Shown: piece after piece, positions 15,801 through 36,320 of the stretch | Numbering within the stretch: the first letter of the stretch is position 1 | Layout: each line of letters starts with the position of its first letter | From: an uncultured Pseudomonadales bacterium | GTDB lineage: Bacteria; Patescibacteriota; Microgenomatia; UBA1400; UBA12028 | Length of the DNA: 64,000 bases | Assembly: GCA_964509365.1 (NCBI GenBank) | Contig: CAZDWN010000001.1 | Span: 214,966 to 278,965, forward strand | Direction: 5' to 3' | Position numbers and translations under genes: made by a program | The notes under the pieces: model-generated | What the model was told of the DNA's origin: nothing | Database searches by the model: none | The model's input: the letters and a program-made list of their open reading frames with translations, nothing else

Positions 15801-18800
15801 GAGTCATCACGAATGCACTCAATGTATCTGATGCTGAGATAGTCAACGCCATCAACGTCGGCGCCAATGATATTACGGGTACGACCTATACACAGTACGC
15901 AACCGCTGGCGATCTGACGTTGGATTCTTCAAACGATATCAATCTTGATGCAGATGGTGCCGATGTGATTTTGAAAGACAATGGTGTCGTCTACGGCAAT
16001 CTTTCAAATTCAGCCGGTGCACTTTCAATCACTTCAAATACCACGAATGCTGCCAGTCTAGATACGGGCGCTGCTGGAGCGGTCAACATTGGAAACGCAA
16101 ATGCTTCTTCAGTAAACATTGGCGCTACTGCTGCCACGACCATCAGTATTGGGAATGGTGGAGCGTTGACACGAGCCATCAATATCGGTACAGGGACTGG
16201 TGCAGATACGATCAATATTGGTACTGGTGGAACCACCGCCGATGCCATCACTATCGGCAACAATGCTTCGAGTACTTCCCTCTCCTTCACCTCAGGCACC
16301 GGAGCTCAGACATTTACCAGTTCAGCAACCAGTGGAAATGCTTTTGTATATGCCGCAAACGCACTGACGTCTGGGAATGCCTTGAGTCTCTCATCGACGG
16401 CGACGACGTTAACCTCAGGGAAACTCGCCTCCTTTGACTGGAGTCCAGGGTCAGCGACACTCGCATCTGGTGACTTGTTCAACATCAATATTGGCACCAA
16501 TGGCACCACTACAGGAAGCTTGTTCTCTGTCAGTGATGCTGGGAGCAACCTCTTTACTGTCTCTGAGACTGGAGTTACTTCAAATCTCCCAACCTCATTC
16601 ACGTCAGCTGGAGATGTCTCGATGGCATATGACTTGCAATTTACGAATCAAACCTCAAGCTTTATCAAGAGCAAAGCACCACTCTACTTGGAAGCCGGAG
16701 AATCATTCGAAAGTAACGATTTGACGTTGCGTACGTATAACTCAGGTCGAGTCGTCCTGGACAATATCTCTGGAGGATACGCCCAGCTGAACTTCTTGGG
16801 CAAATCAACAACTGGTGATCCGGCAACTTGTTTACCAGGTGATATTTACTTCAACAGTACTGATGCGACCGTCAAAGCGTGTACAGCAAGCAATACGTGG
16901 GAGACGCTTGATGGCGGTGGAACTGTAACTGGATCAGGAGCAACAAATCAAATGGCATACTGGACGTCTGCTTCGAACTTATCTACATCTGGGAACTTCA
17001 CGTTTAATCCAAGCGCGACGAGCACTACTCAAAATGCAATTAGTAACAACGCATTGACGACTACCGGTCAGTTACTCACCTTGAGTTCGTCAGCTACTGG
17101 ATTGACCAGCGCAGGTTCAAACTTGGGATCGCTGTTTGATGTCACTGAGTCAGGAGTCATGACTGGATTCACTGGTTCACTTGCCAGCATCAATGCTTCT
17201 TCAATCAATAACGTTGGGAACACTGGAAATGCACTTAATATCAACTTAGCTGGCGCTGCTAATATCATGAAGGCAGTGAATATCACCGATAACTCGACCG
17301 GCGCACTGACGAACGGAGCGTTCTATATGAACATGACCGGCAACCACACCGGTAGTGCGTTTGCGATCGATGATGTGACGACAGCAGGAAACGTCATGAG
17401 CTTGCGTGACAATGCGCTGACTACTGGGACCGCGTTCCTTGCCTCACACACGACGTCAGTCATCGCCGCTGGTGGATCTTTGATTCGTGCCACATCAAGT
17501 TCAAACGACACCTCGACGACGACCGGTACACTGCTTGATCTCCAGTCATCTGGATCAACCGCTGGCACGATCGCCACGATTACGAATAACACAGCTTCCT
17601 TTACTGGTATCTCTGAGAGCATTTCAAACACAGGATTGACGACGGGAACTGGGCTCAACATTGCTGGTGGTTCCACCATGGCCGCGGGAGGAAAACTCAT
17701 TAATCTTGATATGAGTACATCCACAGCCGGCAATGGCCTCAACATCTCGTCTACCGGCGTCTACGCTGGGACAGGACTTGAGACATTGAGCTCGACCGGA
17801 TTGACCACTGGGACGGTACTGTCAGTTGCTTCGTCAGGAAACAGTCAAACAAGCGGCAAATTAATAAACGTCGCACAAACTGGCGTCACCACCGGATTCA
17901 CTGGCAACTTACTCAATCTTTCCTCGACGAGTACGACTGGAGCTGCGACATTTATCAACCTAGCAGCAGACGCCTCGACAGTCGGAATCGGACAAAAAAT
18001 CTCAATGAATGCACTGACCACTGGTACTGAACTCAGTTTGACGTCTACGTCAACCGCGATCACTTCCGGTAACATGTTTAGCTCTTCACTGACCGGAGCA
18101 TCTGCATTCACTGGTAACCTCAATTACTTTGACTGGACATCATCCGCAGCCACCGCCACTGGCGACCTGATGCGACTGCACATTGGTCCAAACAATAACG
18201 TGGGCAACTTGTTCAACGTCGTTGACGACACGACCAGTCTCTTCTCCATCTCAGAAGCAGCGGTCACTTCAAATCTCCCGACTTCATTCACTGCAGCTGG
18301 TGATGTCTCGATGGCGTATGACTTGCTCTTCACTAACCAAACATCCAGCTACATCAAGAGCAACGGACCACTTACGATCCAATCTGGTGAGAGTTTTGAG
18401 AACAACAACTTGACCCTGCAAACCTTCGGAACTGGAGCGATCATCCCAAGTGGAAAGTTTGCATTTGGATCACAACTCACGCTGACTGCAAACAGCACGA
18501 CGCCATCGGTGACTGCCGGCAACACGTACATCACTGCAAACACCTCGGGAACATTGATCACAAACTTTACGAATGGGACTCCAGGTCAAGTCATCTTCGT
18601 GAAGATTAATGACGTCAACACAGACTTTGACTGTACCAGTTCAAACATCGTCTGTGGGACCACTGACCTCACCACACCGACCACCGGAGATCAACTCGAG
18701 TTTATTTACGATGGAACGAACTGGAACTTACTCGCCTGGATGTTACCAGCAGTCAACAATGCAGATACCACATTTAGTGGCGGTGTCGACGTGGCTGAGT

Positions 18801-20320
18801 TCTACCCAAGTAGCGAGTCACTGCAGGCCGGAGATGTGATCAGTATCGATGCATCCACACCAGTGACAATCAAGAAAGGCGCTCAAGCAGATGGCCAGAA
18901 AGTGATCGGTATCATCTCTACTCAACCTGGTATGACTTTGGGAACTCAGACTCCAAACTCCTACAAAGTCGCACTTGCTGGTCGAGTCCCAGTCACTCTT
19001 GATCCAAATTCTCAAGCAATTCAGCCTGGTGACTTCCTCGCCGCATCTTCAGTCTCTGGAAAAGCAATCAAAGCCACGAGTGGCTACATCATCGGTCGAG
19101 CACTTGAGACATGGACACCAGGCAATGGGACAAATTCTGTCACCGTCTTTGTTGAGACTCACTACATCGATCCAATGATGGCATTGACGACGACTGGGAA
19201 TATGGCGATTGCCGAAGTCGTCAATGGCCAGATGCCATCCACTTTCTCGCTTGCGAATGCAAGTTCGTTCACCGACCGCATTGGGATCTTTACCAAGGCA
19301 ATCATCGCCAATTTGACTGCTGGTCGAATCAATTCGACTGAAGTGAATACGAGTCGCCTCTCGATTGATGGAAAGAGCGTCCAACAGTTGATTAGTGAAG
19401 CAGTGCAAAATGCATCTGTAAGTGGCACGTATGATGGAAACGCGACTATCTCTGGTCAGTTAGTTGCGCAAACGGCATCTGTCTCCGGTGATGCAACCGT
19501 GTCCGGCACTCTCTATGCCGATCGCATCGCCGCATTGGATCCAATCAAATCAGCACTGGACCTCAACACCGCGTCGATGAGTGCCCTCCTCTCTTCTTGG
19601 TCGAACTGGAGTGCGTCAGCCTCCGCCAATGTGATCACTGCAGATGCTGTCTTTGCAAATGAGTATTTGAATGTCCAAGGGAGTGCCAGTATTACTGATG
19701 CTGCGATCAACCACAGTTTGATTGTCGGCGGCTCACTTGCACTAGATCACAACTCACTGACATTGATTTCGGACAGTGAAGATACTCTGTACATCCAGGC
19801 GACGACATCTGGCAAACTCAACTTACTCGCAGGAACGATGACGTTGTCGACCGAAGGAGGTCTCTTCGTCAACACCAACGCAACTTTTGCCAAAGATGTG
19901 ACAGTCCAAGGGACACTTGAAGCTCGCACACTCGGAATTGCGACAGAGAGTGGCAAACTCGCGATTGCCAATAGTGAGCACTCTGAGGTCGCGAGTATCG
20001 ACGCCTCAGGATCAGCAACCTTCGCCAAACTCGCCTTGACGACAAGTGCTACCAGCTCAGCAGTGGTAAAACTTGACGCAACCGTCGGAAAAGCCACGTT
20101 GAAGAATGGTCAGACATCAGTGACGATTTATACCAACCAGATCTCAGACAAGTCTTTGATCTACATCACTCCGACGAGTAGTACAGGCAACAAAGTGCCA
20201 TTCATCCAGAGTAAGTTCTCCTATGACCCACAAAATCCAAGTATCGTCGGTAGCTTCACCGTCGCGATTGATGCCCCAGTGGCAAACGATATCTCCCTCA
20301 ACTGGTGGATCATCAACTAA
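3872..20320 (+). CDS. giant (5,482 aa) repetitive Thr/Gly/Ser/Asn-rich surface protein with N-terminal excisionase/MerR-type HTH and single TM helix
   Basis: Single uninterrupted ORF of 16,449 nt. aa 10-58 match the HTH_17/excisionase pattern (LSIQEAAHILKVSEKTLRRWEDKNILVPIRTAGGHRRYTLDQLHAF). One TM helix (VVIFASLVLALFALSMIA). Then several families of long internal repeats (LSLGNGSASTISTPSGNAG units; about 200-aa GSGxANQIxYW...TNYISGTNFTVTAAG units; about 190-aa NIGTGTGADTINIGTGG...FIKSKAPLYL units), paired Cys motifs (CLTSGNCxG, CLDGSNNxITC) and a non-repetitive C-terminal region. Antisense ORFs in the track are Pro/Val-rich mirror artefacts. Confidence 0.85.
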   Translation: MDQQSRNSSHLSIQEAAHILKVSEKTLRRWEDKNILVPIRTAGGHRRYTLDQLHAFKSNKKKNREIQASEAIFVPTVEIRPTLIKQAVASPLLHRPAQTRFSFPVKRVVIFASLVLALFALSMIAKPITSSLASIKLPTLRGPLIATKKTPAKAITKASSASVLGIADEYIQFTLNVDTVLNENLRVVKDASIGGTLGVNSGRIASAASSGSIFDDNVSTLTIGSSGTAISIGATTGTTTINNQTTAVRGTLTLIGNRLTSAADLVIDPGGGGVLIGTSTPASIDSASGDLFVSDQFEVKGASYLPTIITNGDTITDFTGTGLQVSAGILSTTLGTSIQSTEIDNSAITSDKLADEAVTEPKLNVTNDASNGYILSSAGDGKFTWVPQNTAVNFFTDAGPNIYITDTTDDLSLGTTSDLAKLGVSGDSDEIQLLARGNTTQTSDILSVQNSSGTSLFSVSGTGVLTASQLNCTSYANGGALTTNASGVISCADDDGGGTASPFQTTAGVANLITPTDDVTVGSNTDYGKLAVAGDSDEVQFLVHGNATQTSFLGVFEQSTGTDVFTIANSGDLVTAGNLAVNGGSITTTSTTANIFNSTVTTLNIGAAATNINIGVVGGTMTIPSNVTITGTLTTAASDFAADGAVTLSPSGTNDITFNLDANSTFILNGVQSGTASNGLCLDGSNNLITCSTVGSLTLQSAYNNDGDGSDTVIALTSADDSVVIRNPASSGTDSGYTFFIDQLNTGNVDGIRVDTAGTGTGIAVNSSSTGTLLSLVASSIGTTTTGISVQNSDTGVITNGLDVSDPEIVNAISLGSNSILTGSGAVTSAELFRLSGKDAALVDTNDAVVTAITGTGALNTGSITSGFGSIDVGADAVAAGTITVNGDSITDFTGNGLQVSGGNLALKLQTATDALSSTISSGSGLETFAGGVAMLQGCTDGQILKWNETTDEWGCANDSGATSAIINVKNNGSSVGTNVDTLNFTTDFLVAESPSGTDNISVADDILNFTELSDSLVLDANTTITAGSALSLTIGNNATLTTTGSGSIIATDLVCADCVALGSETTGNYVATITAGNGLTGDVSSEGSTPTLAVGAGNGILSNANDVAVDQSYGFTFTGNVSFSPSGTNNLSFTGDANSQINLTGLQATSAVSGLCLDASNNVVTCAVGGSMSSFSLAGDSGSDTVSNGQTATIAGGTNGIDTVESGRTVTLNLDTTEITNATFGTGAAGFTWTFDASAGTDTTIAFGNNTQTFTTGTATFTGNLTAQGTTLSLGNGSASTISTPSGNAGLTIAPNGTGTLNLATTNTGNVVIGNGTGSFQLTSSGGLNVSTGGALTGVASLDTISTSATALGFAGTGTLSSGAATALNIVPGTSGALNLATTNTGNVVIGNATGTFVLNSNGGLNVTSGGALTGVASLDTISTSATALGFAGAGTITSAGANALTLDSGSTGTINIGTGTSGKTINVGTSNSNADTINIGSALDTLALAGTTGITGTTTITGTANINSSGAATTNIGTGTGNVVIGNGTGTFALTSNGGLNVSTAGVLSGITGYTQSSGAFSLTLSTTNSALFASTTSGADALAIKPQSALTSAGFTGTVSTVDLTAARTYTFPDATGDVCLTSGNCAGVGGGLTGSGTTGQIAYFNGSGSLTSEASGFAWDATNNRLGIGTDTPTGMLHVTGAVTGKALTIFNETGDQNILAASASGTTVATLDRNGQFMVNTTTANADKIALVGNATGANTFTGSVSVADLTADRTFTFPDATGTVCLTSGNCTGAGGSMASFNLAGDTGSDAVADAQTATIAGGTNGIDTTETGRTVTLNLDATEISGTSSSGATTFSDGTQSTVTWTFNTSGATDTSLAFANNAVTLTAGTTTMSGNLTVQGTALSLGNGSASTISTPSGNAGITIAPNGTGSLNLATTNTGAVTIGNATGAFQLISNGGLNVSTGGALTGVASLDTISTSATAIGFAGVGVLSSGAGTNLSIIPGTTGSLNLATTNTGNVVIGNGTGTFALTSNGGLNVSTAGVLTGVTSIDTIGTTATGLTFAGSGSIVTTTSSALTLDSGTTGAVNLGSGNNAKTINIATGTAGDTVNIATDNSIADTINIASALDTTTIAGSFKLTGLSAQTGSQLCITGGNVVGTCSSGSGVTGSGLANQITYWSSGTAVTGNANFLFNPSNVSGTTTSSSVVLTDASLTTGTNLYVSGTSTPVANTATSQNVIAVTYAQVTAANTNGFTGLDLKFTNASTIAGNTEYAARIQNQASGSSPSDAAIAALLQLDNADTTSGNSIVVTDALQISNSGAIAAGVTNGIAFRSTTIDTGINFVSTPTTNYISGTNFTVTAAGAETLGSNLTVNGTSLSLGNGSASTISTPSGNAGITIAPNGTGTLNLATTNTGAVSIGNATGSFALASSGGLNVSTGGALTGVASIDTIGTSATGLTFAGAGTIVTNTSSALTLDSGTTGIVNLGTGNNAKTVNIATGTAGDTVNIGTDNSIADTINIASALDTTTIAGLFKLTGLSAQTGSQLCITAGNVIGTCASGSGVTGSGVANQIAYWSGTNALTGNANLTFDPTATTGNALALADTSLTTGKLTSFTGTSTPVANTATTQNLFAVTYAQGTAANTNGFVGLGVNFTNSPTIAGNTEYAAQIQNQVTTNTTDNAVAALLRLDNADTSGTGSTVVTDALQISNSGAIAAGITNGIAFRSTTIDTGINFVSTPTTNYISGTNFTVTAAGAATLASNLTVNGTTLSLGNGSASTISTPSGNAGISITPNGSGALALGSGNTGNFTLGNSTGTGAITTSDWVIGTTGNMTGIGNIVADGNISFTPSGTSDITFNTAPGSGANLTITGLTSGTASSGICLDGSNNVITCNAATTVNLQDAYDHDTDTGDTLITFSAADDSLIFRNPASSGTDSTFLLNLDQLASGTQDVLTISQAGTGNAFAITTTNAGTTPAAIKISNSAGTITDAIDLTDATGITNAINVAGNKIKGTTGSIDYTNFDVDGATGNITVAAGVGLDSNAAGILALGNTTATTVSIGSTAATTLNLGASGSLTRAINIGTGTGADTINIGTGGTAADAITIGNNASSTSLAFTSGTGVQTFTSSATSGNAFVYAANALTSGNELNLSSTSTTLTSGKLASFDWSPGSATLATGDLFNINIGTNGTTTGNLFSVSDTASNLFTVSESGITANLPTAFTAAGDVTMAYDLQFTNQTSSFIKSKAPLYLDVGETFENNDLTLRTYNFGRVIADVSNNGGVLISSNPAASTQNGLLQVNGAATGKALAIFNETGDQKILSASASGTTVATLDRAGQFTVNTTTANADKLALKGNATGSNSFTGTLSTADLTVGDQTFNLPDLAAATSATICVSTGNCAGLGTGVTQSGTNASGQIAYFTSTNNITSDATYLLSPNATTGTALSLTDTALTTGKLTSFSGTSTPVANTATTQNLFAVTYAQGTAANTNGFVGLGVNFTNSPTIAGNTEYAAQIQNQVTTNTTDNAVAALLRLDNADTSGTGSTVVTDALQISNSGAIAAGVTNGIAFRSTTIDTGINFVSTPTTNYISGTNFNVAATGAITVAGGVGLDTNASGVLALGNTTATTVNIGNTAATTLALGAGGALTRTINIGTGTGVDTIHIGDGGTGADVITIGSTNAGNVSIKSAAALNLTGGTSSLIDFPNFDVSTTGLVTFLGGLTPDITTQSNNSLTITPAGTGDLVFAGDADTTFENNLSNTSAFNINGTTASSRTGVDMVTISQASGAGSSNSNLLQLTNNDADSTSAALAISQVGNGTGIDISGVTSGSGITLALALSAGGSGIAFPVGYGISDAYGIIFNGSGTVTAGLSGSMIEASPTRIYQGAGTISETGNFLKLARTETQNTGVGTIAITGDVASLSSTCTISGGVCTDNSNILSLAQNFASATGAVLDITNAGTGKGTLLTSSSTGDLMELDSSGAVTTTNGLVIAATNGSGVITNALNVSDAEIVNAINVGANDITGTTYTQYATAGDLTLDSSNDINLDADGADVILKDNGVVYGNLSNSAGALSITSNTTNAASLDTGAAGAVNIGNANASSVNIGATAATTISIGNGGALTRAINIGTGTGADTINIGTGGTTADAITIGNNASSTSLSFTSGTGAQTFTSSATSGNAFVYAANALTSGNALSLSSTATTLTSGKLASFDWSPGSATLASGDLFNINIGTNGTTTGSLFSVSDAGSNLFTVSETGVTSNLPTSFTSAGDVSMAYDLQFTNQTSSFIKSKAPLYLEAGESFESNDLTLRTYNSGRVVLDNISGGYAQLNFLGKSTTGDPATCLPGDIYFNSTDATVKACTASNTWETLDGGGTVTGSGATNQMAYWTSASNLSTSGNFTFNPSATSTTQNAISNNALTTTGQLLTLSSSATGLTSAGSNLGSLFDVTESGVMTGFTGSLASINASSINNVGNTGNALNINLAGAANIMKAVNITDNSTGALTNGAFYMNMTGNHTGSAFAIDDVTTAGNVMSLRDNALTTGTAFLASHTTSVIAAGGSLIRATSSSNDTSTTTGTLLDLQSSGSTAGTIATITNNTASFTGISESISNTGLTTGTGLNIAGGSTMAAGGKLINLDMSTSTAGNGLNISSTGVYAGTGLETLSSTGLTTGTVLSVASSGNSQTSGKLINVAQTGVTTGFTGNLLNLSSTSTTGAATFINLAADASTVGIGQKISMNALTTGTELSLTSTSTAITSGNMFSSSLTGASAFTGNLNYFDWTSSAATATGDLMRLHIGPNNNVGNLFNVVDDTTSLFSISEAAVTSNLPTSFTAAGDVSMAYDLLFTNQTSSYIKSNGPLTIQSGESFENNNLTLQTFGTGAIIPSGKFAFGSQLTLTANSTTPSVTAGNTYITANTSGTLITNFTNGTPGQVIFVKINDVNTDFDCTSSNIVCGTTDLTTPTTGDQLEFIYDGTNWNLLAWMLPAVNNADTTFSGGVDVAEFYPSSESLQAGDVISIDASTPVTIKKGAQADGQKVIGIISTQPGMTLGTQTPNSYKVALAGRVPVTLDPNSQAIQPGDFLAASSVSGKAIKATSGYIIGRALETWTPGNGTNSVTVFVETHYIDPMMALTTTGNMAIAEVVNGQMPSTFSLANASSFTDRIGIFTKAIIANLTAGRINSTEVNTSRLSIDGKSVQQLISEAVQNASVSGTYDGNATISGQLVAQTASVSGDATVSGTLYADRIAALDPIKSALDLNTASMSALLSSWSNWSASASANVITADAVFANEYLNVQGSASITDAAINHSLIVGGSLALDHNSLTLISDSEDTLYIQATTSGKLNLLAGTMTLSTEGGLFVNTNATFAKDVTVQGTLEARTLGIATESGKLAIANSEHSEVASIDASGSATFAKLALTTSATSSAVVKLDATVGKATLKNGQTSVTIYTNQISDKSLIYITPTSSTGNKVPFIQSKFSYDPQNPSIVGSFTVAIDAPVANDISLNWWIIN

Positions 20321-20410: not shown

Positions 20411-21964
20411 TTACTTTTGAAGAACTTTAAATATTCTCGCGCCGCCTTTATCGAAGACTTTTTCAAGATATGATTTTGATTCTGGATGATAGCCGTATTG
20501 CAACAGCGAATCATTATTACCCACGTAGATATACGTGATGGAGTTCTCACGTAAAAATGATTGTGATTTTTCATCGTCTTTCTCAAGTAGAAAAGAATTA
20601 ATTCGAGCTACTTTGTCTTCAAATGTAATGGTTTGTGCCTTGTGCCCGACATACACTCGTCGTCCCGAAGTCCCAGGAATCAGATTGCCATAAAACCAAT
20701 TGGAGAGAATCACATCGGTTGGCTGCGTGTGCTCTCGCAACCAAGTCAAACCTTCATATTCTTCCGTTGAAACAAAGTAATAATACGAGGCCTTGCTATC
20801 CTTCCCTATTGTTTGAAAATCGGTTATTACCAGTTGAACGGACCCCAGTAGTAAGAAGATGGTGATCGCGGCAATGCATGGAACTGCGAGGCGTACGCGA
20901 TAAGATTTGATGACACTGTACAGTTGAAAGAGACCCGCAGCTGCAAGTAGGCTGATTGGAATCGAAATTCCTTCACTCAGTCGTCGTTGAAAACCAACGG
21001 GCGCATACATCATCACGATTCCAATGCCACTCCACAAGAGAATGAGCTTGATACTCGCGCGCCTTGAAAGCAGCCAAGTGTTTGCGCCACTCAGTGCGAG
21101 TGGAATGAACATTCCAAATCCAGATAGGAATGCCATTGGTGACGGTGAGAGCGATACACCTTGCGCTTGTTCACTCGCAAACACTGGATTTACTCGCAAT
21201 TGGTAGAGCGGATAGGCGATGCCTATGACGGAGAAAAAACTCAACAAGAACGTAGGGGCCAACGCAGCGCTTGAGAGCAAGCCAGTAAAAAACAGCACCG
21301 GTCCCAAAATCATGAGGTCAAATGGATGATCAAATGCCAAGAGTGCACAGCAGATGAGTATGACAATCGGCAAGTGAGATCGTTTGGTCTTCAGAAAGCG
21401 TACGTAACAGTACAACACAGTGAGCATCAGCGCTTGTGAAAAAATAAAGTGTGGACTCTCAGCAAGTGACATGAACACATTTGATTCAGGGATCCACAAA
21501 TCAGAAGATTGATTGATAAATCTGCCGAGCAGCCATCCCAGTCCAGAGGAAGTCAAGACTAGGAGGAATGCACATACCCGTTGTTTTTCTCGCTGAAATA
21601 GTTCGCTGATAAACAAGTACAGGATAAAACAAAAGTAAAGCGAAGCGAGGACTCGAGCGAGTTGATACGACTGCAGTGATGAGGTATGCGTAAAACGCGC
21701 GAATGTGCCAATGGCTAGATATACAGGTCGAATAATGGTTGGAGATTGAGGTTCAGTCGTGTACAAGTTTTCAAAAATAAGTTTTCCCTGCCTTGATTGC
21801 TCAATAAAAGAGAGGTAGGTGTACATGTCTTGTGAGTTGATCACTCGACGACCCAGGAATGTGAGATCTAACTTCCCAACAAATGAGAAATAGAGTATCG
21901 GGGCGTTCACAAAGAGGATGACAAGTACAGCAACTAACGTGGCGATGAGGTGTTCTTTTTTCAT
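20411..21964 (-). CDS. polytopic membrane glycosyltransferase, GT-C fold, STT3/AglB/PglB-like (paralog B)
   Basis: Start taken at the internal Met (MKKEHLIATLVAVLV...) that forms an ATGA overlap with the upstream gene stop. About 11-13 predicted TM helices plus an approx. 120-aa C-terminal soluble domain containing SNWFYGNLIPGTSGRRVYVGH, which resembles the WWDYG...DGxxH region of oligosaccharyltransferases. Confidence 0.5.
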   Translation of the reverse strand: MKKEHLIATLVAVLVILFVNAPILYFSFVGKLDLTFLGRRVINSQDMYTYLSFIEQSRQGKLIFENLYTTEPQSPTIIRPVYLAIGTFARFTHTSSLQSYQLARVLASLYFCFILYLFISELFQREKQRVCAFLLVLTSSGLGWLLGRFINQSSDLWIPESNVFMSLAESPHFIFSQALMLTVLYCYVRFLKTKRSHLPIVILICCALLAFDHPFDLMILGPVLFFTGLLSSAALAPTFLLSFFSVIGIAYPLYQLRVNPVFASEQAQGVSLSPSPMAFLSGFGMFIPLALSGANTWLLSRRASIKLILLWSGIGIVMMYAPVGFQRRLSEGISIPISLLAAAGLFQLYSVIKSYRVRLAVPCIAAITIFLLLGSVQLVITDFQTIGKDSKASYYYFVSTEEYEGLTWLREHTQPTDVILSNWFYGNLIPGTSGRRVYVGHKAQTITFEDKVARINSFLLEKDDEKSQSFLRENSITYIYVGNNDSLLQYGYHPESKSYLEKVFDKGGARIFKVLQK

Positions 21965-23511
21965 TGCGGTTGTCCATTGATGTGTGGTTTTTGCGGAAGC
22001 GCCGTCGAGTCGCCATCTTTGATCGCAAACACCACGCGCTCGTCTTGATAGCTGACTTTCCAATTGCCTAGCGTTGTCCCAGTGAGGAGTTTGGTCGCCA
22101 GCTCCGAGTGAGCTGGAATGAACACCCAGTCAAAATTATATTTTAAGAAAATATCATCTCTGCCGTGATAATACATCTCGATGTAATCGCCAAATGGTTG
22201 ATATCCATCTTCTGTCTTCCAGACATGCATTCTGCCATCGATAAATAATTTGACGGGAACTCCTTTCCCTATCAAGTACCCTCCCCAATCATAAAATGTA
22301 AATCCTTTCCCATGCGGAGGATGCGTGAGGAGAAAATTGGCCCCATCGACGGGACAGTTCGCCGCAAAATCACAATACGCGACTTCATCATAGTGATACA
22401 GTCGCCCAGCGGTGAAGCGATCAAAAAAATGATATTGAATAAAAATTATGAGAAGAAGCAAGTATGCGACAGGAGTAATTCGATAGCGATCAAATTCCAA
22501 TTTGAGATACGTGAGCGACTCTGCGATGAGCGGCAATGTGACGATCGCAAACACAGGAAGCAGTCTCCTGGTGTCCCACGTTGGCATTGCAAAGAGTACA
22601 AATAAGACGACGCTTGGGAGCGCATATTCATTTTTCTTCCACACTGCGATTGCAGCACAGGCAGAAAAAAGGACTCCATATGCAACAAATGCATGAGGAT
22701 GACATGCCTGACATCCATCAGAAATGGGGTCCCACTCGAGAATATTTCGTAAATATGGATTGCTCGCGTGACGAAACGACTCAAAGTAAGCTTGATAGCC
22801 AAACGGATTGATGAGCGTTGCGATGAAGCATACCAGGAGTATTTTTGAACAAAAGAAAAACAAATCTGTCGAGAAATCGTGCTCTCTATACGCATCGATT
22901 AAAAAGTAACTTCCTAGATAGACAGCGAGTATTCCCATGCCGATAGTGAAATCACCATGAAAGTTTGTCCACAAGAGAAAAAGTCCTGGCAATATCCAGA
23001 GGAGTGTCAGTTTTTCCCTTGCCTTGATGAGGATCCAAATGAGGAGTGAGAAGAACAGAAGTGAAATGATTTGTGAGCGCATGCCGGAACCGATGACTAT
23101 CTCATTCATGAGTAAGAAGAATGCCGCGAGGATGCCTTTCTTCCAGAGGGAAAGACGAAATGCGGTCGCAACAAAATAAAATGTCAGTGCCGATACTACT
23201 GCGGCCAGAATGGATAAACCCGCATAACCCAACACGTTGGTCCACACATAAAACAGCGCATCATAAGCCCAAGAATGATTCGCCCACTTGTAGCCTGGTA
23301 ACGTCCAAGAGAAAATATCTTCGCGTAAGAGTTTCCCCGTTGTCAAAAAGTACTCTCCATATCGGTAGTGCCATCCTTGATCTCGATCTGCTTGTGGGTA
23401 GACTGAAGCAAGCAGCACAAGAACATACAGACTTGCATGAAAAAACCGATCTTTGTACAGTCCGTACGAGAGAAGCGCTGAGTAATACAACGAGCGAAAT
23501 GTAGTTGTCAT
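21961..23511 (-). CDS. polytopic membrane glycosyltransferase, GT-C fold, STT3/AglB/PglB-like (paralog A)
   Basis: 516 aa with many TM helices. Acidic first external loop (YPQADRDQGW...LLRED). C-terminal soluble domain with FTFYDWGGYLIGKGVPVKLFIDGRMH, which aligns to the PglB WWDYGYP....VK.L.DGGKH motif. Translationally coupled to paralog B. Confidence 0.5.
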   Translation of the reverse strand: MTTTFRSLYYSALLSYGLYKDRFFHASLYVLVLLASVYPQADRDQGWHYRYGEYFLTTGKLLREDIFSWTLPGYKWANHSWAYDALFYVWTNVLGYAGLSILAAVVSALTFYFVATAFRLSLWKKGILAAFFLLMNEIVIGSGMRSQIISLLFFSLLIWILIKAREKLTLLWILPGLFLLWTNFHGDFTIGMGILAVYLGSYFLIDAYREHDFSTDLFFFCSKILLVCFIATLINPFGYQAYFESFRHASNPYLRNILEWDPISDGCQACHPHAFVAYGVLFSACAAIAVWKKNEYALPSVVLFVLFAMPTWDTRRLLPVFAIVTLPLIAESLTYLKLEFDRYRITPVAYLLLLIIFIQYHFFDRFTAGRLYHYDEVAYCDFAANCPVDGANFLLTHPPHGKGFTFYDWGGYLIGKGVPVKLFIDGRMHVWKTEDGYQPFGDYIEMYYHGRDDIFLKYNFDWVFIPAHSELATKLLTGTTLGNWKVSYQDERVVFAIKDGDSTALPQKPHINGQPQ

Positions 23512-23532
23512 GACGAGCTTTCATTCTACAGG

Positions 23533-24783
23533 TCAAGCACTCACAACTTCTAGAGTCGGTAATGGAAAGATCATTACCCCGCCACTTTGAAGAAACTTGC
23601 GTTCTCGATGCAGAAACTCTTCCCGGAAATGCCAAGGTAAGACAAGGAGCACATCAGGTTTGTTCAGTCGAAGGTCACGATCGGACACAATTGGAATATG
23701 ACTCGCCACCGTGACTCTACCTACTTTCTCGGGATTACGATCGTATGCAGCGGCGATGACCGGAAATGACAGGCCGCAATATTGAAGCATCGTGTTCCCT
23801 TTGGTTGACGCTCCATACACTCCTATCTTCTTGCCAGCAGTAGCGTACGCATCAATGAGCGTGCGCAATTCCCGTCGCATCCGCCGCACTTTGCTGGCAA
23901 ACGCCTTGTACGTGCCCAATTTTGAAAGACCGAGTAGTCGTTCACTCTCCAATACAGCTCGAATTTTGGCGCTAGCTGCCTCACTCGGCTGTAATATCGA
24001 GTCATTTTTGACGGCAATCGTACGAATGCTTCCGCCGTTGACATCATTTTGGTCCACATCAATGAGTCGCATCCCACCTCGTTTCAACACCTCCATAAAT
24101 GTCGCGAGCGAGTAATAGGTCACATGTTCGTGACAAATATTTGGATAGTCGTTTTTCTCAAGCATTGACCCAAGATACGTCATTTGATTGACCCACATAC
24201 CATCTTGAGCGAGGCAGTCTACGACATCACTGACAAATGTGACCGGATCATCGAGATCATAGAACATTGCAAGGCTTGTGATCAGTGTAGCTGGAGGTTG
24301 ACCTACATATTTAGTATAGGCCTTTTTAGTAAAATATTCTGGGACGTTGACACTAGTATACAGAGACAAGTCCTTCTGAATATTGAGCGCCGGCTCAAAA
24401 CCCACTCGAGTAAGAAATTGAGGAAAAAAAGACAACAACGTCCCGTCATTTGCACCAATATCGACGATCACATCACCTGCTTTGAGTGTCATTCTCCTCT
24501 GGCAGTCGACCGCAACTTCTTTTAGTGCTCGTTTCATGCTTGCGTTCACACCTGACTTGTACCAATACTGCCGATACAGTATGTCTTGATCGACGCCCAT
24601 GGTACTCAGTTGCAAGAGCCCGCAACCGTGGCGAGGATCGCACAGGACGAGATGCAGCGGATACGTATCGGCCAACGTGTTTGTGATGGGAAAATCTGAC
24701 ACAGCCAAATCTCCGAGATCAAGAATGGAGTTGAGATGTGGTGAGCCGCACACACGACAGGAATGCAGTGATCGAGACGACAT
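23533..24783 (-). CDS. SAM-dependent C-methyltransferase family protein (sugar C-methyltransferase-like; zinc-ribbon N-terminus)
   Basis: 416 aa. N-terminal CxxC...C/H zinc-binding module (CRVCGSPHL...CDPRHGCG), class I SAM-MTase motif (VIVDIGANDGTLL) and a C-terminal domain typical of the TylC3/NovU-like C-methyltransferase family. Confidence 0.65.
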   Translation of the reverse strand: MSSRSLHSCRVCGSPHLNSILDLGDLAVSDFPITNTLADTYPLHLVLCDPRHGCGLLQLSTMGVDQDILYRQYWYKSGVNASMKRALKEVAVDCQRRMTLKAGDVIVDIGANDGTLLSFFPQFLTRVGFEPALNIQKDLSLYTSVNVPEYFTKKAYTKYVGQPPATLITSLAMFYDLDDPVTFVSDVVDCLAQDGMWVNQMTYLGSMLEKNDYPNICHEHVTYYSLATFMEVLKRGGMRLIDVDQNDVNGGSIRTIAVKNDSILQPSEAASAKIRAVLESERLLGLSKLGTYKAFASKVRRMRRELRTLIDAYATAGKKIGVYGASTKGNTMLQYCGLSFPVIAAAYDRNPEKVGRVTVASHIPIVSDRDLRLNKPDVLLVLPWHFREEFLHRERKFLQSGGVMIFPLPTLEVVSA

Positions 24784-24824
24784 GATTCCCAGATAGTATC
24801 AAGGAAGTGACGATACATCCAGGT

Positions 24825-25568
24825 TTAGATTCGTTTCATTGAATCAAGCCGATGTCGAATTGCGAATTGAAAAGAATCGAGGAGTTCTTTGATAGCCTTA
24901 GAGGCAACCATCTTCGATGTGCCCACTTGCCTATCCTGAAATCGTACCGGAAGTTCTCGAAATGAAGCGGTATGTTTTGAAAGTTCATACAACATTGCTG
25001 GAAAAAATGCGTATCCATTGGGAAGAGCACCAAAATTTATTTCATCGATAAGTCCATTGACTTTGATTGCGCGTCCCGCGCTCGTATGTTCATGGACGGC
25101 AGTCATTCCTGCAATCCATTCCGCAAGGATCGTATTCGCCACGAAGTGACCCACTCGTCGCGACAGGCTCGAACTATAAAATTCTGCCTCATTTACTCTG
25201 GAAGCTATGACGACGTCATTTTCCGAAAGGAGATCAATCATTGAGAGTATAGTTTCGGGTGGAAACACGAAATCTGATTCATAGGTAACAATTCCTTCAG
25301 CGTGCATATTTTCCATCGCATACGCATAGCCTCGCTTCATTGCTGCTCCGATTCCGGACTTATCCCCATATGATACAAAAAAATGTGGATATGTCCGAAC
25401 AAAAGAATCCAACACTGCTCGAGTGCCATCCTGAGAATTATCATCGACAATGAGTGTGGAAAAAGAAATGTTTGGACGCATCAAATAAATTTTCGAGTAC
25501 AGCAGTGGTACCAGCTTTTCCAAATTCACCTTTTCGTTGTAAGTCGGAATGAGAATTGTTACTTCCAT
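24825..25568 (-). CDS. GT2 polyprenol-phosphate sugar synthase (Dpm1/AglJ/ArnC-like)
   Basis: 247 aa. ILIPTYNE ... VDDNSQDGT ... acidic DxD-like pocket, typical of dolichyl/undecaprenyl-phosphate glycosyltransferases. Divergent from the LamG operon. Confidence 0.8.
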   Translation of the reverse strand: MEVTILIPTYNEKVNLEKLVPLLYSKIYLMRPNISFSTLIVDDNSQDGTRAVLDSFVRTYPHFFVSYGDKSGIGAAMKRGYAYAMENMHAEGIVTYESDFVFPPETILSMIDLLSENDVVIASRVNEAEFYSSSLSRRVGHFVANTILAEWIAGMTAVHEHTSAGRAIKVNGLIDEINFGALPNGYAFFPAMLYELSKHTASFRELPVRFQDRQVGTSKMVASKAIKELLDSFQFAIRHRLDSMKRI

Positions 25569-25668: not shown

Positions 25669-28600
25669 ATGCACTTTTTTACGTATCAGCGGCGTACAGG
25701 CCACAGGAAAAAATCCAACCGACGAGTCTTCATGTTGGCACTTACCGTTCCAATTGTTCTCGTGCTCCTCCCTGCTTTGTACTTCGGCCTCAAAAGAGCT
25801 TTTCCAGCCAAAGCTGCATGGATGGATAGCAATTGGCGGTATCGCAAGACTGTCGCGATCGTGAATAATGGCTCGACTCAGACGTCGTATCAAGTCATGG
25901 TACCAGTTGACACCTATACGTTGATCAACGCAGGAAAAATGAAATCAGATTGCAGTGACCTGCGGTTTGCGGATAGTGCTGGCTCGACAATGGGCTATTA
26001 TCTTGAGTACTGCGTCAATACCGCAAGCAGTGGAAACTCCGTAGTTTGGGTGACCGTACCGTCGATCACTGGTTCTGCGACGACCAATGTCTACATGTAC
26101 TATGGCAATGGGAGCGCCTCTGCAGTCAGTGCATTTACTTCTGCACCGACTGGCATTGACATCGGCAGTGGCGCAGATGGAAATATCGCGATTGCAGCGG
26201 ATACAAATATCAATACGGCTGATTCCATCAACACTGGTACTGCCCGCGCATGCAGCGATACTACTGGCGGTGACGCTGTCATTTACACGACAGGAGTGAA
26301 TGCTGTCGCTGGCAACACGTCAGTGAATGTCGCGACTGCTGTGAGTTCGAGTTGCTTAAACTCCGGCGACGAAGTCATTATCATCGTTCTCTCTGGTGCC
26401 AATTCAGGGAAATTCGAATTCAATCGCGTCACCTCCACTCCGAGTGGCAATATGATTTCTCTCAGTCATGCGCTCGTTAATTCATACAATGGCGCCGCAG
26501 AAAAAGTTGTGGTCCAGCGCGTACCCAATTATGCAAACGTCACAACCAGTGGCACTGCAAACTTTACTCCCTCCGCATGGAACGGTACATCTGGTGGTGT
26601 GATGATGTTTCGAGCCAGTGGAAATGTCGTCGTCGCCGCGAGCACTGCTATTCATTCAAATTTCTTGGGAAGCAATGGTGGGACGTTTGGAAATGCTGGA
26701 TCTGGAGGAGCGGCCGGCGGTAGCGGCGGCACAGCTGGAACAAGCGGAAGTAGTGGCGTCACTGGAAGTGGCAATGGCGGAGGTGTCTTGGCTACTGCAC
26801 CTGGCACTGGAGGAAATGGTGGAGCGAACGGATCGAACACAGCATCTCTAGGAAACATCCCAGGTGGTGGTGGAGGCGGAGGAGGTGGTGGTGGTGGAGG
26901 CGGTGCCTACGGCACAGCCGCGACTGGAGGCACCGCCGGAAGTGCCGGAGGAAATGCAGGAAACGGAACCTCCACTGCTTCGTATGCTGGCGCGAAAGGA
27001 AATGCTGGCCAGGCAGGAGCCGCAGGCTCTACCTATGGGAACACGAACTTCACGACTTCAAATGCGAATCTGTATTTAGGTTCTGGCGGAGGAAGTGGCT
27101 CTGGAGGAGGAGGAGGTGGTGGTGCTGATTTATTCTTGGCTGCCACCGGTGGAACCGGAGCCAATGGTGGCCGCGGTGGCGAAGGTGGCAATGGTGGCGG
27201 CATCGTTGGAATTTTTGCAAACGCGATTATCAATAATGGCAATATTGGCTCGAATGGACAAAACGCAGCTGCCAGTAATGGAGGAAATGCCGGTGTCGCC
27301 GGATCAGGTAACTCAGCTGGCGGCGGTGGTGGTGGAGGCGGTGGTGGTGGAGGCGGTGGTGGCTCAGGAGGCTCAATTTGGCTGTCCGCAAATAGCGTCA
27401 CGCTTGGGACCTCAAAAGTTGTTGCCAACGGAGGCACTGCTGGCGTCGGTGGCGGCGCGGGAGCTGGTGGAACTTGTGGCAGTGGTGCGAATGATGGTGG
27501 TGGTGGCGGTGGAGGTGGAAATACTGGTGGTGCCGGAGGTACTACGAGCTGTCTCAATGCTGGGACAGCGGGAACAACTGCGGCAAGTTCAGGAAATGGT
27601 GGTAGTGGTGGTCAAGGTCGCATCTTCCAGCAATACAACTCAAATTCAGGGACGACCTCCCCCGCCGCTTCTGGCGTCCAGCTGCCGGTCGCAGCAGCTC
27701 CGACGAGTGAGGAATCTGTCACAAGCTCAGCAAATGTCGAAGCCGTAAACTGGAAATTTGATGAAGGATATGGGACGACTACGGCCGACTCTATGTCAAA
27801 TGCGACGACAGCGACTCTTGCAGGAGCTGCCTTGCCGACTTGGGCAACGGAAGACCAATGTATCTCTGGAAAATGTCTGTATTTCGGAGGCGTCTCCTCA
27901 AAACTGACGGTCGCTAATCCCATTTTGGTGAGTAGTATCTCGTTTTGGATTCGCCCGATTACCACTGCTTCATCAGCGTTCTTTGATTTTGGAGGTGGCA
28001 CAGTCACGATAAAAAGTGACGCTTCAAGCAACTTGACCACCACTGGGTTTACCGGCGCCACCATGTATCTCAATGGCGCAGCATGTACTACCTGTACTCT
28101 TGTCGCGAACCGTTGGCAACACATTGCGGTGATTAGTACTGCAGCGATCACCAGTACAAGCAGTATGACTGTCGCCACCGCGACTCAGTTTTACAAAGGC
28201 TACATGGATGAAGTACGTATCTACTCGTCGACAGTGACCGCTTCACAGATTCTCTCAGAGTACACTAGTCGAGGAAGTATCAACGGGACTTCCGTGCAAA
28301 CTGGCCAGGCATCCCAAGCATTTTTGAGCGATGGTCTTGCTGCGTATTGGAAACTCGAAGAGTCCTCGACCAGCTCAGCTGATAGTACAAATAACGGTAT
28401 GACTGGCACTTGGAATGGTGCCCCTGCCGTCGCAACCGGAAAATTTGGGAAAGCGATCTCCTTTAGCGGGACACCCACTGCCTATGTCAACGTGCTTGAT
28501 AATACGATCCTTGATCCAAGCTATATTACTATTGCTGCTTGGATTAACCCTACGAGCGGGACAGATCGACTCCTCGTCGCCAAGGATGTAAGTTACACAT

Positions 28601-31600
28601 TTGGGATCAATAGCTCTGGATTTTTAAGTTGTGAGATTTACAATGGCTCGGGCTACCTCCCTTCTGCAGTGAGCACCGTGGCTGTCTCGACCGGTACCTG
28701 GCAACATGTCGCCTGTACTTTTGATGGGACAACTACCGCAGTGTATCTCAATGGACAGTTGGTTGGTTCAATCACCACAAGCCCACCAAAAACGGTAAAC
28801 AACGGCTCAAATTCTCTCCGGCTTGGTCATCACGTCGCGGGTACATACGGGGACTACAATGGCAAACTTGACGAGGTTCGTATATACAACCGAGCCTTAC
28901 CCATCAATGAATTGCGTCAATTATATTCCTGGGCTCCAGGGCCGGTTGGCTACTGGCCGTTTGACGAAAATACAGGCCAAATTGCCAATGATCTGAGTGG
29001 CAATGATTGGTCTGGAGACCTTGGCACGACAACTGGTGTCGATACGACAGATCCAGCCTGGGATACTGGGAAGTATGGCTCGGCACTACGATTTACGACG
29101 AGTGCCGACACCTCGGTAAACATTGGAGATGACGATGCGCTCGACGCAGATGCAAACTCGAGTATGTCTTTTGGGCTTTGGGTGAAAGTAACTGGCGTTT
29201 CTTCGTTCAATAATGACACAATCCTCATGGACAAGGAAAATATTGGCGCAGATGCGGGATTTACTTTGGCAATTGGAAATGACTCTTGCGGATCTTTTGG
29301 CCAGATTTGTGTCACCTTGTGGGATGCAGGAGCGGCGATCACCTATTCGATGCACACGACGACTACCGTACCTGATTCAAACTGGCATCATATCGCTTTC
29401 GTCTTTGATCGAACTAGTGAGACGAACACGAATATCTACCTTGATGGAGTCGTCCAGCCGGTTACTCGAACTGGTACATTTGCCAGTCTGGGAAGTCTTG
29501 CGACGACCGATGTACTCTGCGTCGGGATTGAGTCATCAGGCTCAAACTGCGGAGGACTTCATGAACTGACAGGTTCTGTCGACGATATCAAATTTTACAA
29601 TTATCCTCGGACGCAATCGCAAATCATTGAAGACATCAACGGCGGACATCCGATTGGAGGCTCCCCGGTTGCATCACAGCTTATTTATTGGAATTTCGAT
29701 GAACAATCCGGTGCAGGTACGAGCAACAAAGGGTTTGGAGGCACGACGTACAATGGGACCGCCAACGGACCGCAATGGTCAGGTATCTCCAGATCAGTAT
29801 GTAAAGTAAATGGCTGTCTGAAGTTTGTAAGCGGGACAGATTACGTCAGCGTGGCCGATGCAAACTTAGCCTCACTTGATAGTCTGGCTGGCTTTGGCGT
29901 GTCCTTTTGGATAAATCCGCAGACGATGGGCACTGATAAATCGATTCTTTCAAAAAACGATTCAGCGCAGAGAAGTTTCGCTATCGTCACCGATTCGTCA
30001 GATAACACCAAGCTACGTGTCCATATCGCTGCAAGCACTGCTGAAGCAGCAAATACGACCTACTGCACGACAGATTCCGGAGCATTGACGACGAGTGTTT
30101 GGCAGCACTTCACGATTTCCTATGATGGCTCACAATCGACTGCAGCAAATCGAGTGAAAGTCTATAAGAATGGGAGTCAAATAAATTGCTCCATGACGGG
30201 CACATTCCCTACTGCAATGACTTCGGGAAGCACCTCAGATTTGCGAGTTGGTGACGATGTTTCAGCGACATACACCGCCTTATTGGCTTTGATTGATGAG
30301 GTCAAAGTATACAATGCAGCCATATCTGCAGACCAGGCAAAACTTGAAGCAAACTACGGATCTGCTGCCGCCTACTCTACAGGCAATGACGAAGTCACGC
30401 AGATCACAGGAACTGCCGAGACTCCACCAGTCGGCTACTGGCCGTTTGATGACAACACCGGGACCACTGCCTATGACCGCAGCGGCAACAGTAATGATGG
30501 GACCTTAACAAGTTTTGTCAGTAATATCTGGGTACCAGGCAAAGTTGGCTCGAGTCTCAATTTTGATGGCGTCGATAGTCGCGTGACCATTTCCAATTCA
30601 TCGACTTTAGGAGATTTGCCAAGCAGCGGAATGACCTTATCCGCTTGGGTATATCCTCGCTCGACCGGTGAATCTGCTGGAGGTCGTATCGTATCCAAAG
30701 ACGACACCGGACCTGCTAATGGCTGGCAATGGCTGATTGAGAGTACCTCAAAGATGGAGTTTCAAGCAGATTTTACGGGTGGGACCAATACTGACCTTGA
30801 TGTGAAGACGACGGGGACACTCACACTCAATACCTGGCAACATATCGCCCTCACCTGGGATGGCTCAGCAAACGCATCAAATGTGCACATTTACATAAAC
30901 GGTGTTGAGCAAACCCATAGTACCAACACGAGTGGAGACTCAACCAGAGTCTCTGATGTGACAAAAAACTTCATGATTGGCAATGGCCAGACAGGGACAC
31001 GTACGTTTGATGGAATGATCGATGATGTCCGCGCATACAACTATGTACGGACAGCGACTCAAATTGCCTATGATTACAATCGAGGTGGTCCTACCCGATG
31101 GTACAAATTCGATGATAACGTTTCGGGAAATACTCAAACGCTCAAGGATGCGTCAGGCAATACTCTGAATGCCACTACTCATTATGGTGCAAACACGACT
31201 GGCATGGACTGCACCGCAGAGGCGAAGTTCAATAAAGGTTGTTCTCTTGACGGAGTTGATGACTATATCGATATGGCCAACACAGGTTTCCCCACTGGAG
31301 ATTTTACCTTCTCAGTGTGGATAAACCCGACAGCGACAGCGAGTTTCCCTGTTGTATATTTACCGAATGGTAGCGGCAGCTACGTCTTTGAAATACTAAC
31401 TATTAACAGCACAAATAAAATGGAACTGTCACTCAATGCAAGCGGAGTCGTTCTGGACACAAACCAGACAATTACTCCTGGTGCATGGAACCACGTCGTC
31501 TTTACTCGTTCTGGAAGCTCCATAAAAGCGTACATAAACGGAAAGCTCGACTCTGTGACTGCGACATATGGGACTGCCATGACACTAGGAAGTTGTAACA

Positions 31601-31773: not shown

Positions 31774-31774
31774 T

Positions 31775-36319: not shown

Positions 36320-36320
36320 T

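Follow-up and report, generated by a model that had tools for sequence, protein, structure and literature searches.

The catalytic subunits of oligosaccharyltransferases (OSTs), such as STT3A and PglB, have a first outer loop with a catalytic Asp (PglB D56, STT3A D49), a metal-binding DxD/DxE pair in loop 2 just before the fourth transmembrane (TM) helix (PglB D154/D156, STT3A D167/E169), a catalytic Glu in loop 5 (SVSE/TIXE), a WWD(YG) motif that binds the Ser/Thr at position +2 of the sequon, and a DK or MI motif, likewise C-terminal. Other enzymes of the glycosyltransferase C (GT-C) fold, including DPY19, TfpW and the protein O-mannosyltransferase (PMT) heterodimer PMT1/PMT2, modify proteins using lipid-phosphate-monosaccharide donors. 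The WWD sequon-binding motif lies in the C-terminal domain of OSTs and reportedly shows strict conservation among STT3 proteins (PMC10859629). TfpW is the GT-C pilin arabinosyltransferase of Pseudomonas aeruginosa (bioRxiv 10.1101/2020.04.19.049825). A large uncharacterised bacterial family of YfhO-like GT-C proteins, 'Component 27', has also been found to be structurally near STT3/PglB (Durairaj et al. 2023, PMC10584680). Here we analyse positions 20411-25568 of a 64-kb stretch of contig CAZDWN010000001.1 from an uncultured member of the Patescibacteria, which is Microgenomates/Levybacteria-like as judged by the homologues; the whole stretch is referred to below as the window. The region encodes a family 2 glycosyltransferase (GT2), an S-adenosylmethionine (SAM)-dependent methyltransferase and two polytopic membrane proteins, which we call MemA and MemB. 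We propose, with a probability of roughly 0.55, that these genes form a polyprenyl-phosphate-sugar-dependent extracytoplasmic glycosylation module that contains two OST-like GT-C enzymes.

In order to determine the fold of the two membrane proteins, we modelled both with AlphaFold2, using family alignments as input. The models are very confident (predicted local distance difference test, pLDDT, of 94.8 for MemA and 96.6 for MemB) and show some 11 TM helices followed by a C-terminal domain, which in MemA is an alpha/beta domain about 130 amino acids long. When the MemA model was searched with Foldseek, ranks 1-10 were all occupied by OST catalytic subunits (E 8.8e-8 to 6e-5, query TM-scores 0.48-0.59), with ArnT, DPY19 and AftA ranking below them. 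For both proteins the nearest solved structures are STT3, PglB and AglB, including the minimal C-terminal domain of AglB-S2. As modelled, MemA and MemB adopt the GT-C fold, their extracytoplasmic C-terminal domain belongs to the OST-core type, and their predicted architecture is that of a cut-down OST catalytic subunit with an AglB-S2-like minimal C-terminal domain.

We compared the two proteins with known families at the sequence level using three alignments: one of the MemA family (98 sequences), one of the MemB family (115 sequences) and one of a closer subset of MemB relatives (61 sequences). The MemB family profile matches STT3A of the Protein Data Bank (PDB) with an E-value of 6.5e-7, and it reaches AglB-S2 and fungal Stt3 proteins too. 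The MemB-STT3A alignment spans loop 5 to the C-terminal domain and places NWFYG of MemB on WWDYG and R328 on R405. No match to the PDB was obtained for MemA, with either the single sequence or the family profile. In Pfam, which was searched with both proteins, the 98 MemA members and the 61 close MemB members, no family covers MemA or any of its 98 relatives. The Pfam STT3 model (PF02516), put forward in the original prediction as a check on OST identity, spoke against that identity, as it matched neither protein and no member of either set at E<=1. The YfhO (PF09586) model likewise matched neither MemA, MemB nor their family members, the PMT_2 and ArnT-type models matched neither MemA nor MemB, and no PMT or Dpy19 model gave a significant match to MemA or MemB, with a single MemB member reaching Dpy19 at 0.0037. 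MemB itself is matched by DUF6541 (PF20176) at 34.5 bits (cut-off 29), although over model positions 431-644 of 646 alone, corresponding to the C-terminal third; 12 of the 61 close relatives match this model as well. Membership of MemA in the YfhO family was considered and rejected because of the missing Pfam YfhO match and an hhalign probability of 0.5% against YfhO-type partner genes (described below); the corresponding probability for MemB is 39%.

The two proteins had been described as duplicated paralogs. BLASTP detects no similarity between them (best E 3.2), which rules out a recent duplication as the origin of the pair. Homology itself holds, since the two family profiles align over the C-terminal two thirds with an hhalign probability of 93% (E 2.8e-7, 11% identity). 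By this profile-profile comparison, MemA and MemB are distant homologues, that is, two distantly related GT-C enzymes.

We then asked whether the catalytic residues of OSTs have counterparts in MemA and MemB, taking STT3A and PglB reference sequences that were checked against PDB entries 6s7o_A and 3rce_A. Conservation was counted over 136 diverse family members for MemA and over 115 for MemB. An acidic first outer loop, which together with a GT-C fold had been named beforehand as a feature to look for, was found for both proteins by structure prediction and conservation. In MemA, D44 is invariant (136/136) and D42 nearly so (126/136); in MemB, D46 is kept in 112 of 115 members and lies in the loop that follows TM1 of the model. 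These residues are likened to PglB D56 and STT3A D49 by position, without a significant alignment. The putative loop-5 Glu of MemA, E259, is aligned to STT3A E351 in the best hhalign segment, which is itself non-significant (E 0.058). The significant alignment of MemB with STT3A sets E351 opposite a non-acidic column, followed by the conserved Q268/N269. At the topological position of the loop-2 metal-binding pair, before TM4, MemA has R145-S-Q147 (R in 122 and Q in 113 of 136 members), while in MemB H172 is weakly aligned to STT3A D167 and D155 and E160 lie farther upstream. These MemB residues are conserved (D155 103/115, E160 99/115, H172 110/115), and in both families a conserved Arg opens a late TM helix: R316 in MemA (130/136) and R327/R328 in MemB (R327 in 113/115).

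The C-terminal motifs on which an OST-like reading had been based are present as quoted (MemA FYDWG at residues 406-410 and DGRMH at 425-429; MemB NWFYG at 422-426 and GH at 440-441), and their resemblance to WWDYG/DGGKH stands, whereas the WWD element itself does not. The MemA stretch FYDWGGYLIGKGVPVKLFIDGRMH aligns to PglB residues 463-485 in a weak, non-significant hhalign match (E 0.013), in which D425-G-R-M(H) lines up with D481-G-G-K-H of PglB. Y407, G410, G411 and D425-G-R-M are each present in at least 131 of 136 MemA family members, and W409 is present in 91. The position equivalent to the Asp of WWD, residue 408, is variable (N in 50, D in 29, R in 17, G in 16 and E in 10 of 136); the subfamily to which MemA itself belongs reads FYDWG, with Asp in 81 of 98 sequences, and the first aromatic position varies across the 136. 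In MemB the corresponding stretch aligns significantly to STT3A (Table 1), and G426 (112/115), P430 (113/115), G440 (115/115) and H441 (114/115) are conserved. NWFYG contains no Asp, and W423, F424 and Y425 are kept in only about half of the 115 members. A DK/MI-type motif is not evident in MemA or MemB, and no significant alignment spans the DK/MI stretch; following the strand equivalent to 'YVLV' of STT3A, MemB reads G-x-N-D485-S-(M/L)-L in place of DxxK, with a conserved D/E and no Lys. The lack of the WWD sequon clamp suggests that MemA and MemB are not canonical N-oligosaccharyltransferases. Based on the differences in WWD, loop 2 and number of TM helices, together with the absence of sequon enrichment in the neighbouring proteins (see below), we file them as OST-like in architecture but outside GT66. 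Instead of being true mini-oligosaccharyltransferases, the two probably form a new branch within an enzyme superfamily that is already known. The original prediction was right that both are much shorter than canonical OSTs; the difference is about 190-350 residues.

The two genes that precede MemA and MemB indicate what kind of donor the enzymes might use. GT2 matches Pfam Glycos_transf_2 with an E-value of 2.4e-15, and its nearest solved relatives are the dolichyl-phosphate-mannose synthase of P. furiosus (5mlz, 8.7e-10), GtrB (5ekp, 3.6e-6) and ArnC. Weak matches in NCBIfam, every one far under its cut-off, are to PgfS, AglJ, PpgS and ArnC, all of which are polyprenyl-phosphate glycosyltransferases. 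Because both the nearest solved relatives and the NCBIfam matches are of this class, we assign GT2 to the Dpm1/GtrB/ArnC type, in line with the earlier suggestion of a Dpm1/AglJ-like enzyme, and its predicted activity is that of a polyprenyl-phosphate sugar synthase. The methyltransferase had been recognized as a zinc-ribbon, SAM-dependent C-methyltransferase, and this is borne out. It matches Pfam Methyltransf_13 (zinc), Methyltransf_23 and Methyltransf_14, and it aligns over its full length (residues 3-414) with the D-mycarose 3-C-methyltransferase 4rv9 at 7e-57; TcaB9 (1.4e-44) and KijD1 are matched also. The architecture and the full-length match identify it as a homologue of nucleoside diphosphate (NDP)-hexose C-methyltransferases, and the zinc-binding N-terminal, SAM-binding and C-terminal domains of the TylC3/TcaB9/KijD1 3-C-methyltransferases are all found.

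The four genes lie on the minus strand in the order GT2, methyltransferase, MemA, MemB. Gaps of 41 nt and then 21 nt separate the first three, MemB overlaps MemA by 4 nt, and these short distances indicate a single operon. Both the common direction and the ATGA coupling of the last two genes, noted before, were seen in open reading frame (ORF) calls and by direct reading of the sequence. The ORF finder begins MemB at a TTG (20411-22063); the internal ATG at 21964 gives the 517-aa protein used here and overlaps the MemA stop codon, the letters being ...CAA CCG CAA TGA at the end of MemA and ATG AAA AAA GAA CAC at the start of MemB. Promoter and terminator scans of 20200-26000 returned sites no commoner than in shuffled sequence. 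The operon is convergent with a 5,482-aa ORF and divergent from the first of three giant genes encoding LamG domains (Table 1).

Table 1. Features of the operon and of its surroundings, with positions given in the window.
Feature	Position	Strand	Remarks
GT2 glycosyltransferase	24825..25568	-	247 aa; Pfam Glycos_transf_2
SAM-dependent NDP-hexose 3-C-methyltransferase homologue (TylC3/TcaB9 type)	23533..24783	-	416 aa; N-terminal zinc-binding domain
MemA, predicted GT-C fold membrane glycosyltransferase	21961..23511	-	516 aa; ~11 TM helices
MemB, predicted GT-C fold membrane glycosyltransferase	20411..21964	-	517 aa from internal ATG
ATGA stop/start overlap of MemA and MemB (translational coupling)	21961..21964	-	read from sequence
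MemA first outer loop D42-R-D44, putative catalytic acidic pair	23380..23388	-	loop right after TM1 of model
MemA E259-W260, putative counterpart of OST loop-5 Glu (SVSE/TIXE)	22732..22737	-	E259 in 133/136
MemA C-terminal domain motif FYDWGGYLIGKGVPVKLFIDGRMH, resembling PglB WWDYG...DGGKH	22225..22296	-	residues 406-429
MemB NWFYGNLIPGTSGRRVYVGH, aligned to STT3A WWDYGYQITAMANRTILV	20642..20701	-	residues 422-441; HMMER and hhalign
Thr/Ser/Gly/Asn-rich giant, candidate acceptor	3872..20320	+	5,482 aa; convergent with MemB
Three tandem DUF2341 + LamG giants, candidate acceptors	25669..40967	+	divergent from GT2
Polytopic membrane protein with C-terminal tetratricopeptide (TPR) repeats	41023..43116	+	697 aa; recurrent third partner of MemA/MemB
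tRNA-Ala (CGC)	43736-43807	-	
tRNA-Ala (GGC)	44222-44293	+	
EamA-family transporter and LPG_synthase_C protein	46711-48527	-	297 aa and 308 aa; 4-nt overlap
Sortase, DUF11/DUF7601 protein, Pfam-less protein	54010-59937	-	438, 900 and 627 aa; adjoining
ATP-binding cassette (ABC) exporter	61796-63607	-	603 aa; ABC_membrane + ABC_tran

Taken together, these genes suggest the following route. A nucleotide sugar would be tailored by the TylC3/TcaB9-type C-methyltransferase, and GT2, working on the membrane's inner face, would attach a sugar to polyprenyl phosphate. A flippase would turn the lipid-linked sugar over to the outer face, where MemA and MemB would transfer it to acceptors, the MemB-type enzyme possibly acting with the second GT-C enzyme either sequentially or as a complex. 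The fold comes from structure prediction and structure comparison; the type of donor, the cooperation of MemA and MemB and the nature of the acceptor we infer. This reading retains part of the Agl/Pgl-like module originally proposed, namely the STT3-like fold and the lipid-sugar logic, and gives up the duplicated mini-OST pair dedicated to giant adhesins. The alternative that had been offered alongside it, PMT/ArnT-type glycosylation from polyprenol-phosphate sugars, fits the evidence best.

To examine how widespread such proteins are, we scanned genomes and metagenomes for relatives of MemA and MemB, and grouped the genes around them by unbiased clustering. When the MemA profile was used in a full HMMER scan, the matches at E<=1e-3 amounted to 35,180 clusters (50% identity); with E<=1e-30 the number was 12,492. 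A pattern scan found MemA relatives in at least 571 species genomes from Patescibacteria, Acidobacteria, Chloroflexi and others. Most of these stand alone, without MemB and in other contexts, so that, taken over the entire family, a dedication to giant adhesins does not hold. The order MemA then MemB is confined to closer relatives, where it was found at 7 loci in genomes and 17 in metagenomes, with one further locus in reversed order (the metagenome scan for MemB used the closer subset of 61 sequences). In the lineage that has the pair, the flanks repeatedly contain the TPR membrane protein, a LysM-M23 peptidase and Rho, and a giant ORF is often nearby. GT2 and methyltransferase genes are sometimes present there as well. 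The methyltransferase gene type recurs beside MemA-MemB in five loci, one of them that of the closest relative (L001), in which the divergent layout of the LamG giants is repeated also.

MemB-type genes are nearly always paired. Readable flanks were available for 44 full-length genes of the MemB type, and 41 of these abut a co-directional second GT-C gene, which is MemA in 20 cases, a member of the YfhO family in 18 and otherwise another MemB-type gene. A PMT_2-like GT-C gene lies one gene downstream of one of the three exceptions, which brings the paired genes to 42 of 44. The loci are phylogenetically related, and so these counts of pairing and of context do not represent independent events. 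Six metagenome loci contain co-directional MemB-YfhO-MemB-YfhO arrays.

Where MemA occurs without MemB, four layouts recur. In other Patescibacteria (locus L050, 7626-16472, and five further loci) MemA lies in a WxL-type surface-protein operon, in the order WxL protein, PMT_2/TMEM260-like GT-C protein, MemA, LysM+WxLIP_PGBD protein and a Pfam-less protein of about 1,100 aa. A second layout combines SpoIID, MemA and bPH. In the third, seen in eleven loci, two to three tandem copies of a family of about 407 aa and a protein of about 234 aa are encoded immediately upstream of the MemA homologue; neither family is in Pfam. The fourth is found in Acidobacteria (locus L062, 6656-15600, and four further loci), with GT87 and PAP2 upstream of MemA and RcpC, secretin and TadZ downstream. 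This tad/Flp pilus context hints at glycosylation of pilin or of pilus-associated proteins.

The neighbours of the operon in the window are as originally described: the 5,482-aa ORF and three LamG/DUF2341 giants of 2,074, 1,526 and 1,548 aa. Each of the latter carries DUF2341 and six Laminin_G_3 domains, and their genes overlap, by 35 nt in one case and 1 nt in the other. For the first giant the ORF finder places the start at 25549, the likely one being 25669. The four giants had also been called extremely rich in N-x-S/T. Their counts of N-x-S/T and of D/E-x-N-x-S/T equal those in composition-matched shuffles (z -0.5 to +0.7), as illustrated by the 5,482-aa protein with 134 sequons observed against 128 +/- 9 expected. 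The 5,482-aa protein has an odd composition, in which a cytoplasmic DNA-binding domain is joined to an apparently extracellular protein: its N-terminus is a MerR-type helix-turn-helix (residues 12-57; Pfam MerR 4.2e-12, MerR_1 1e-9), and a hydrophobic stretch at about 108-125 is followed by thousands of Thr/Ser/Gly/Asn-rich repetitive residues. The first LamG giant contains a long low-complexity region of poly-Gly/Ala/Ser, which coincides with a local peak in GC content (0.548) and a GC skew of +0.16 at 26-28 kb.

We consider secreted or surface proteins to be the most likely acceptors, with the adjacent giants as candidates. Three points favour protein acceptors: the nearest structures are those of enzymes that modify proteins, the C-terminal domain is OST-type, and surface-protein or pilus genes are present in three independent contexts of the family. 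Several observations weigh against a protein-glycosylation module of the kind we propose. The acceptor is deduced from context and fold neighbours only, and ArnT, which acts on lipid A, and AftA, which acts on arabinogalactan, also score well. The LysM-M23 and SpoIID neighbours and the YfhO partners would suit glycosylation of a cell-wall polymer equally. GT2 and the methyltransferase accompany MemA-MemB in a minority of loci only, and the mapping of MemA residues onto OST motifs relies on topology and on non-significant alignments. A GtrA-type flippase was found neither at 20411-25568 nor, by Pfam, among the window ORFs of at least 150 aa (smaller ORFs were unscanned). Finally, no sugar 4,6-dehydratase or ketoreductase was found in the window, and the pathway to the methyltransferase substrate is thus incomplete here.

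Some of these points lead to a different proposal, in which the module decorates a polymer of the envelope (peptidoglycan, a teichoic-acid-like polymer or a secondary cell-wall polysaccharide) or a lipid (a glycolipid) in the manner of CsbB/GtcA/YfhO, GtrABC or ArnC/ArnT. The combination of GT2 and GT-C is the signature of multi-component transmembrane glycosylation systems, whose targets are lipoteichoic acid, wall teichoic acid, O-antigen and lipid A (PMC5836110, PMC8035078). In the 18 cases mentioned, the more distant homologues of MemB have a YfhO-family gene as partner, genes for LysM-M23 peptidase, SpoIID and Wzy_C-like proteins recur beside MemA/MemB, and ArnT and AftA are among the structural matches. 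We nevertheless regard it as the less likely reading, though a plausible one, since the top structural neighbours act on proteins and share the OST-type C-terminal domain, the Pfam YfhO, PMT_2 and ArnT-type models miss both proteins, MemA compares so poorly with the YfhO partners, several independent contexts contain surface-protein or pilus genes, and no genes for teichoic-acid or polysaccharide synthesis were seen in the window. It is a good deal less probable that MemA and/or MemB is a true minimal N-oligosaccharyltransferase of the AglB/PglB kind, which would transfer a lipid-linked glycan en bloc to the Asn of N-x-S/T in the giants. The fold would agree with such a role, but the Asp of the strictly conserved WWD (PMC10859629) is missing from MemB and variable in MemA, the loop-2 pair is replaced by R145-x-Q147 in MemA, and in the STT3A alignment MemB has no acidic residue in place of the loop-5 Glu. 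The Pfam STT3 result points the same way, as do the sequons of the giants, which are not enriched, and the gene content of the window, in which a search for an initiating phosphoglycosyltransferase found none and nothing flippase-like was seen other than an ABC exporter 36 kb away. A DK/MI-type motif is not evident.

In a further alternative, one protein of the pair would be a catalytically dead scaffold or chaperone for the other, or neither would be a glycosyltransferase but rather, for example, a polymerase/ligase-like or transporter-like protein that shares the fold. This seems highly improbable to us: outward-facing polar residues are near-invariant in MemA (D42, D44, H48, N183, H185, E259, R316, D425, R427) and in MemB (D46, D155, E160, H172, R327, R328, H441), which is typical of active enzymes and disfavours a non-catalytic role, and the best structural matches, with far higher scores, are all active transferases. 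Within the glycosylation module that we prefer, a more specific arrangement can be suggested, although it is speculative and, taken as a whole, rather unlikely to be correct in every part. MemA and MemB may represent a hitherto unrecognised, reduced OST branch in which the sequon clamp and the metal ligands of loop 2 have been lost and polyprenyl-monophosphate sugars serve as donors; the MemB-type proteins would be obligate heteromeric partners of a second GT-C enzyme (MemA, YfhO or PMT_2), as in Pmt1-Pmt2, and in Patescibacteria the giants would be glycosylated.

The 697-aa TPR protein, which had been taken for a WaaL/PglL-family ligase, lies 15 kb from the operon, past the LamG giants, and a gene of its type is found directly beside MemA/MemB in eight other loci. 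That assignment does not hold for the protein itself, for which only TPR models match and Pfam Wzy_C (PF04932) is missing even at E<=5. Among 15 aligned sequences, made up of the window protein and 14 homologues from its family, just 2 reach Wzy_C, the best at 9.2e-12, which makes the relation to O-antigen ligases distant and indirect; at most the protein would be a divergent relative of O-antigen-ligase-like (Wzy_C) proteins. When its family profile was compared with the PDB, TPR matches swamped the search. A possible homology of this protein to MemA/MemB was rejected on comparison. The domain composition of the ABC exporter in the window is that of MsbA/PglK-type flippases of lipids or lipid-linked glycans; given its distance from the operon, we claim no link between them. 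Elsewhere in the window, the sortase and its two adjoining genes look like a sortase-dependent surface-protein or pilus cluster. The LPG_synthase_C protein corresponds to the C-terminal domain of phosphatidylglycerol lysyltransferase without the membrane part of MprF, and the two tRNA-Ala genes are divergent and about 400 nt apart.

Our literature search returned no description of the MemA family, the MemB family or the pairing of MemB with a second GT-C enzyme, and nothing relevant on DUF6541 or on OSTs in Patescibacteria and the Candidate Phyla Radiation. The MemA family is very large and without a Pfam model; among solved GT-C enzymes, the OST catalytic subunit is the one that it most resembles in structure. 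If MemA and MemB glycosylate proteins, they would represent a widespread bacterial route of protein glycosylation that annotation now misses, with a bearing on the maturation of giant surface proteins in Patescibacteria. They would also offer a minimal OST-like scaffold that could serve glycoengineering or studies of the gain or loss of sequon recognition. That MemB-type genes are almost constantly paired with a second GT-C gene is a testable hint of heteromeric GT-C enzymes in bacteria.

Compared with STT3, AglB and PglB (GT66), including the short AglB-S2 of A. fulgidus, MemA and MemB are shorter by the 190-350 residues given above and have about 11 rather than 13 TM helices. MemB lacks WWD and, in the STT3A alignment, the loop-5 Glu, whereas in MemA WWD is not conserved across the family and R-x-Q is found at loop 2. 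The adjacent GT2 points to a single, monophosphate-linked sugar rather than to the pyrophosphate-linked oligosaccharide of OSTs. In having a GT2 synthase gene beside an extracytoplasmic GT-C, the operon resembles GtrA/GtrB/GtrC, ArnC/ArnT and CsbB/GtcA/YfhO (PMC5836110, PMC8035078), and the likeness to the last extends to the physical pairing of more distant MemB homologues with YfhO-family genes. Unlike these systems, it has no GtrA/GtcA flippase gene and encodes two different GT-C enzymes instead of one; the solved chains of GtrB (341 aa) and ArnC (322-363 aa) are longer than its GT2 of 247 aa, and MemA and MemB miss the YfhO, PMT_2 and related Pfam models. TfpW and Pmt1-Pmt2 are functional analogies, although MemA and MemB contain no MIR or other luminal domain of PMT and have a C-terminal domain of the OST type. 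Component 27 is longer (median 665 aa) and is annotated as YfhO in InterPro, which by description sets it apart from MemA and MemB with their roughly 500-520 aa and no Pfam YfhO match, but it provides a precedent for dark GT-C families near STT3/PglB.

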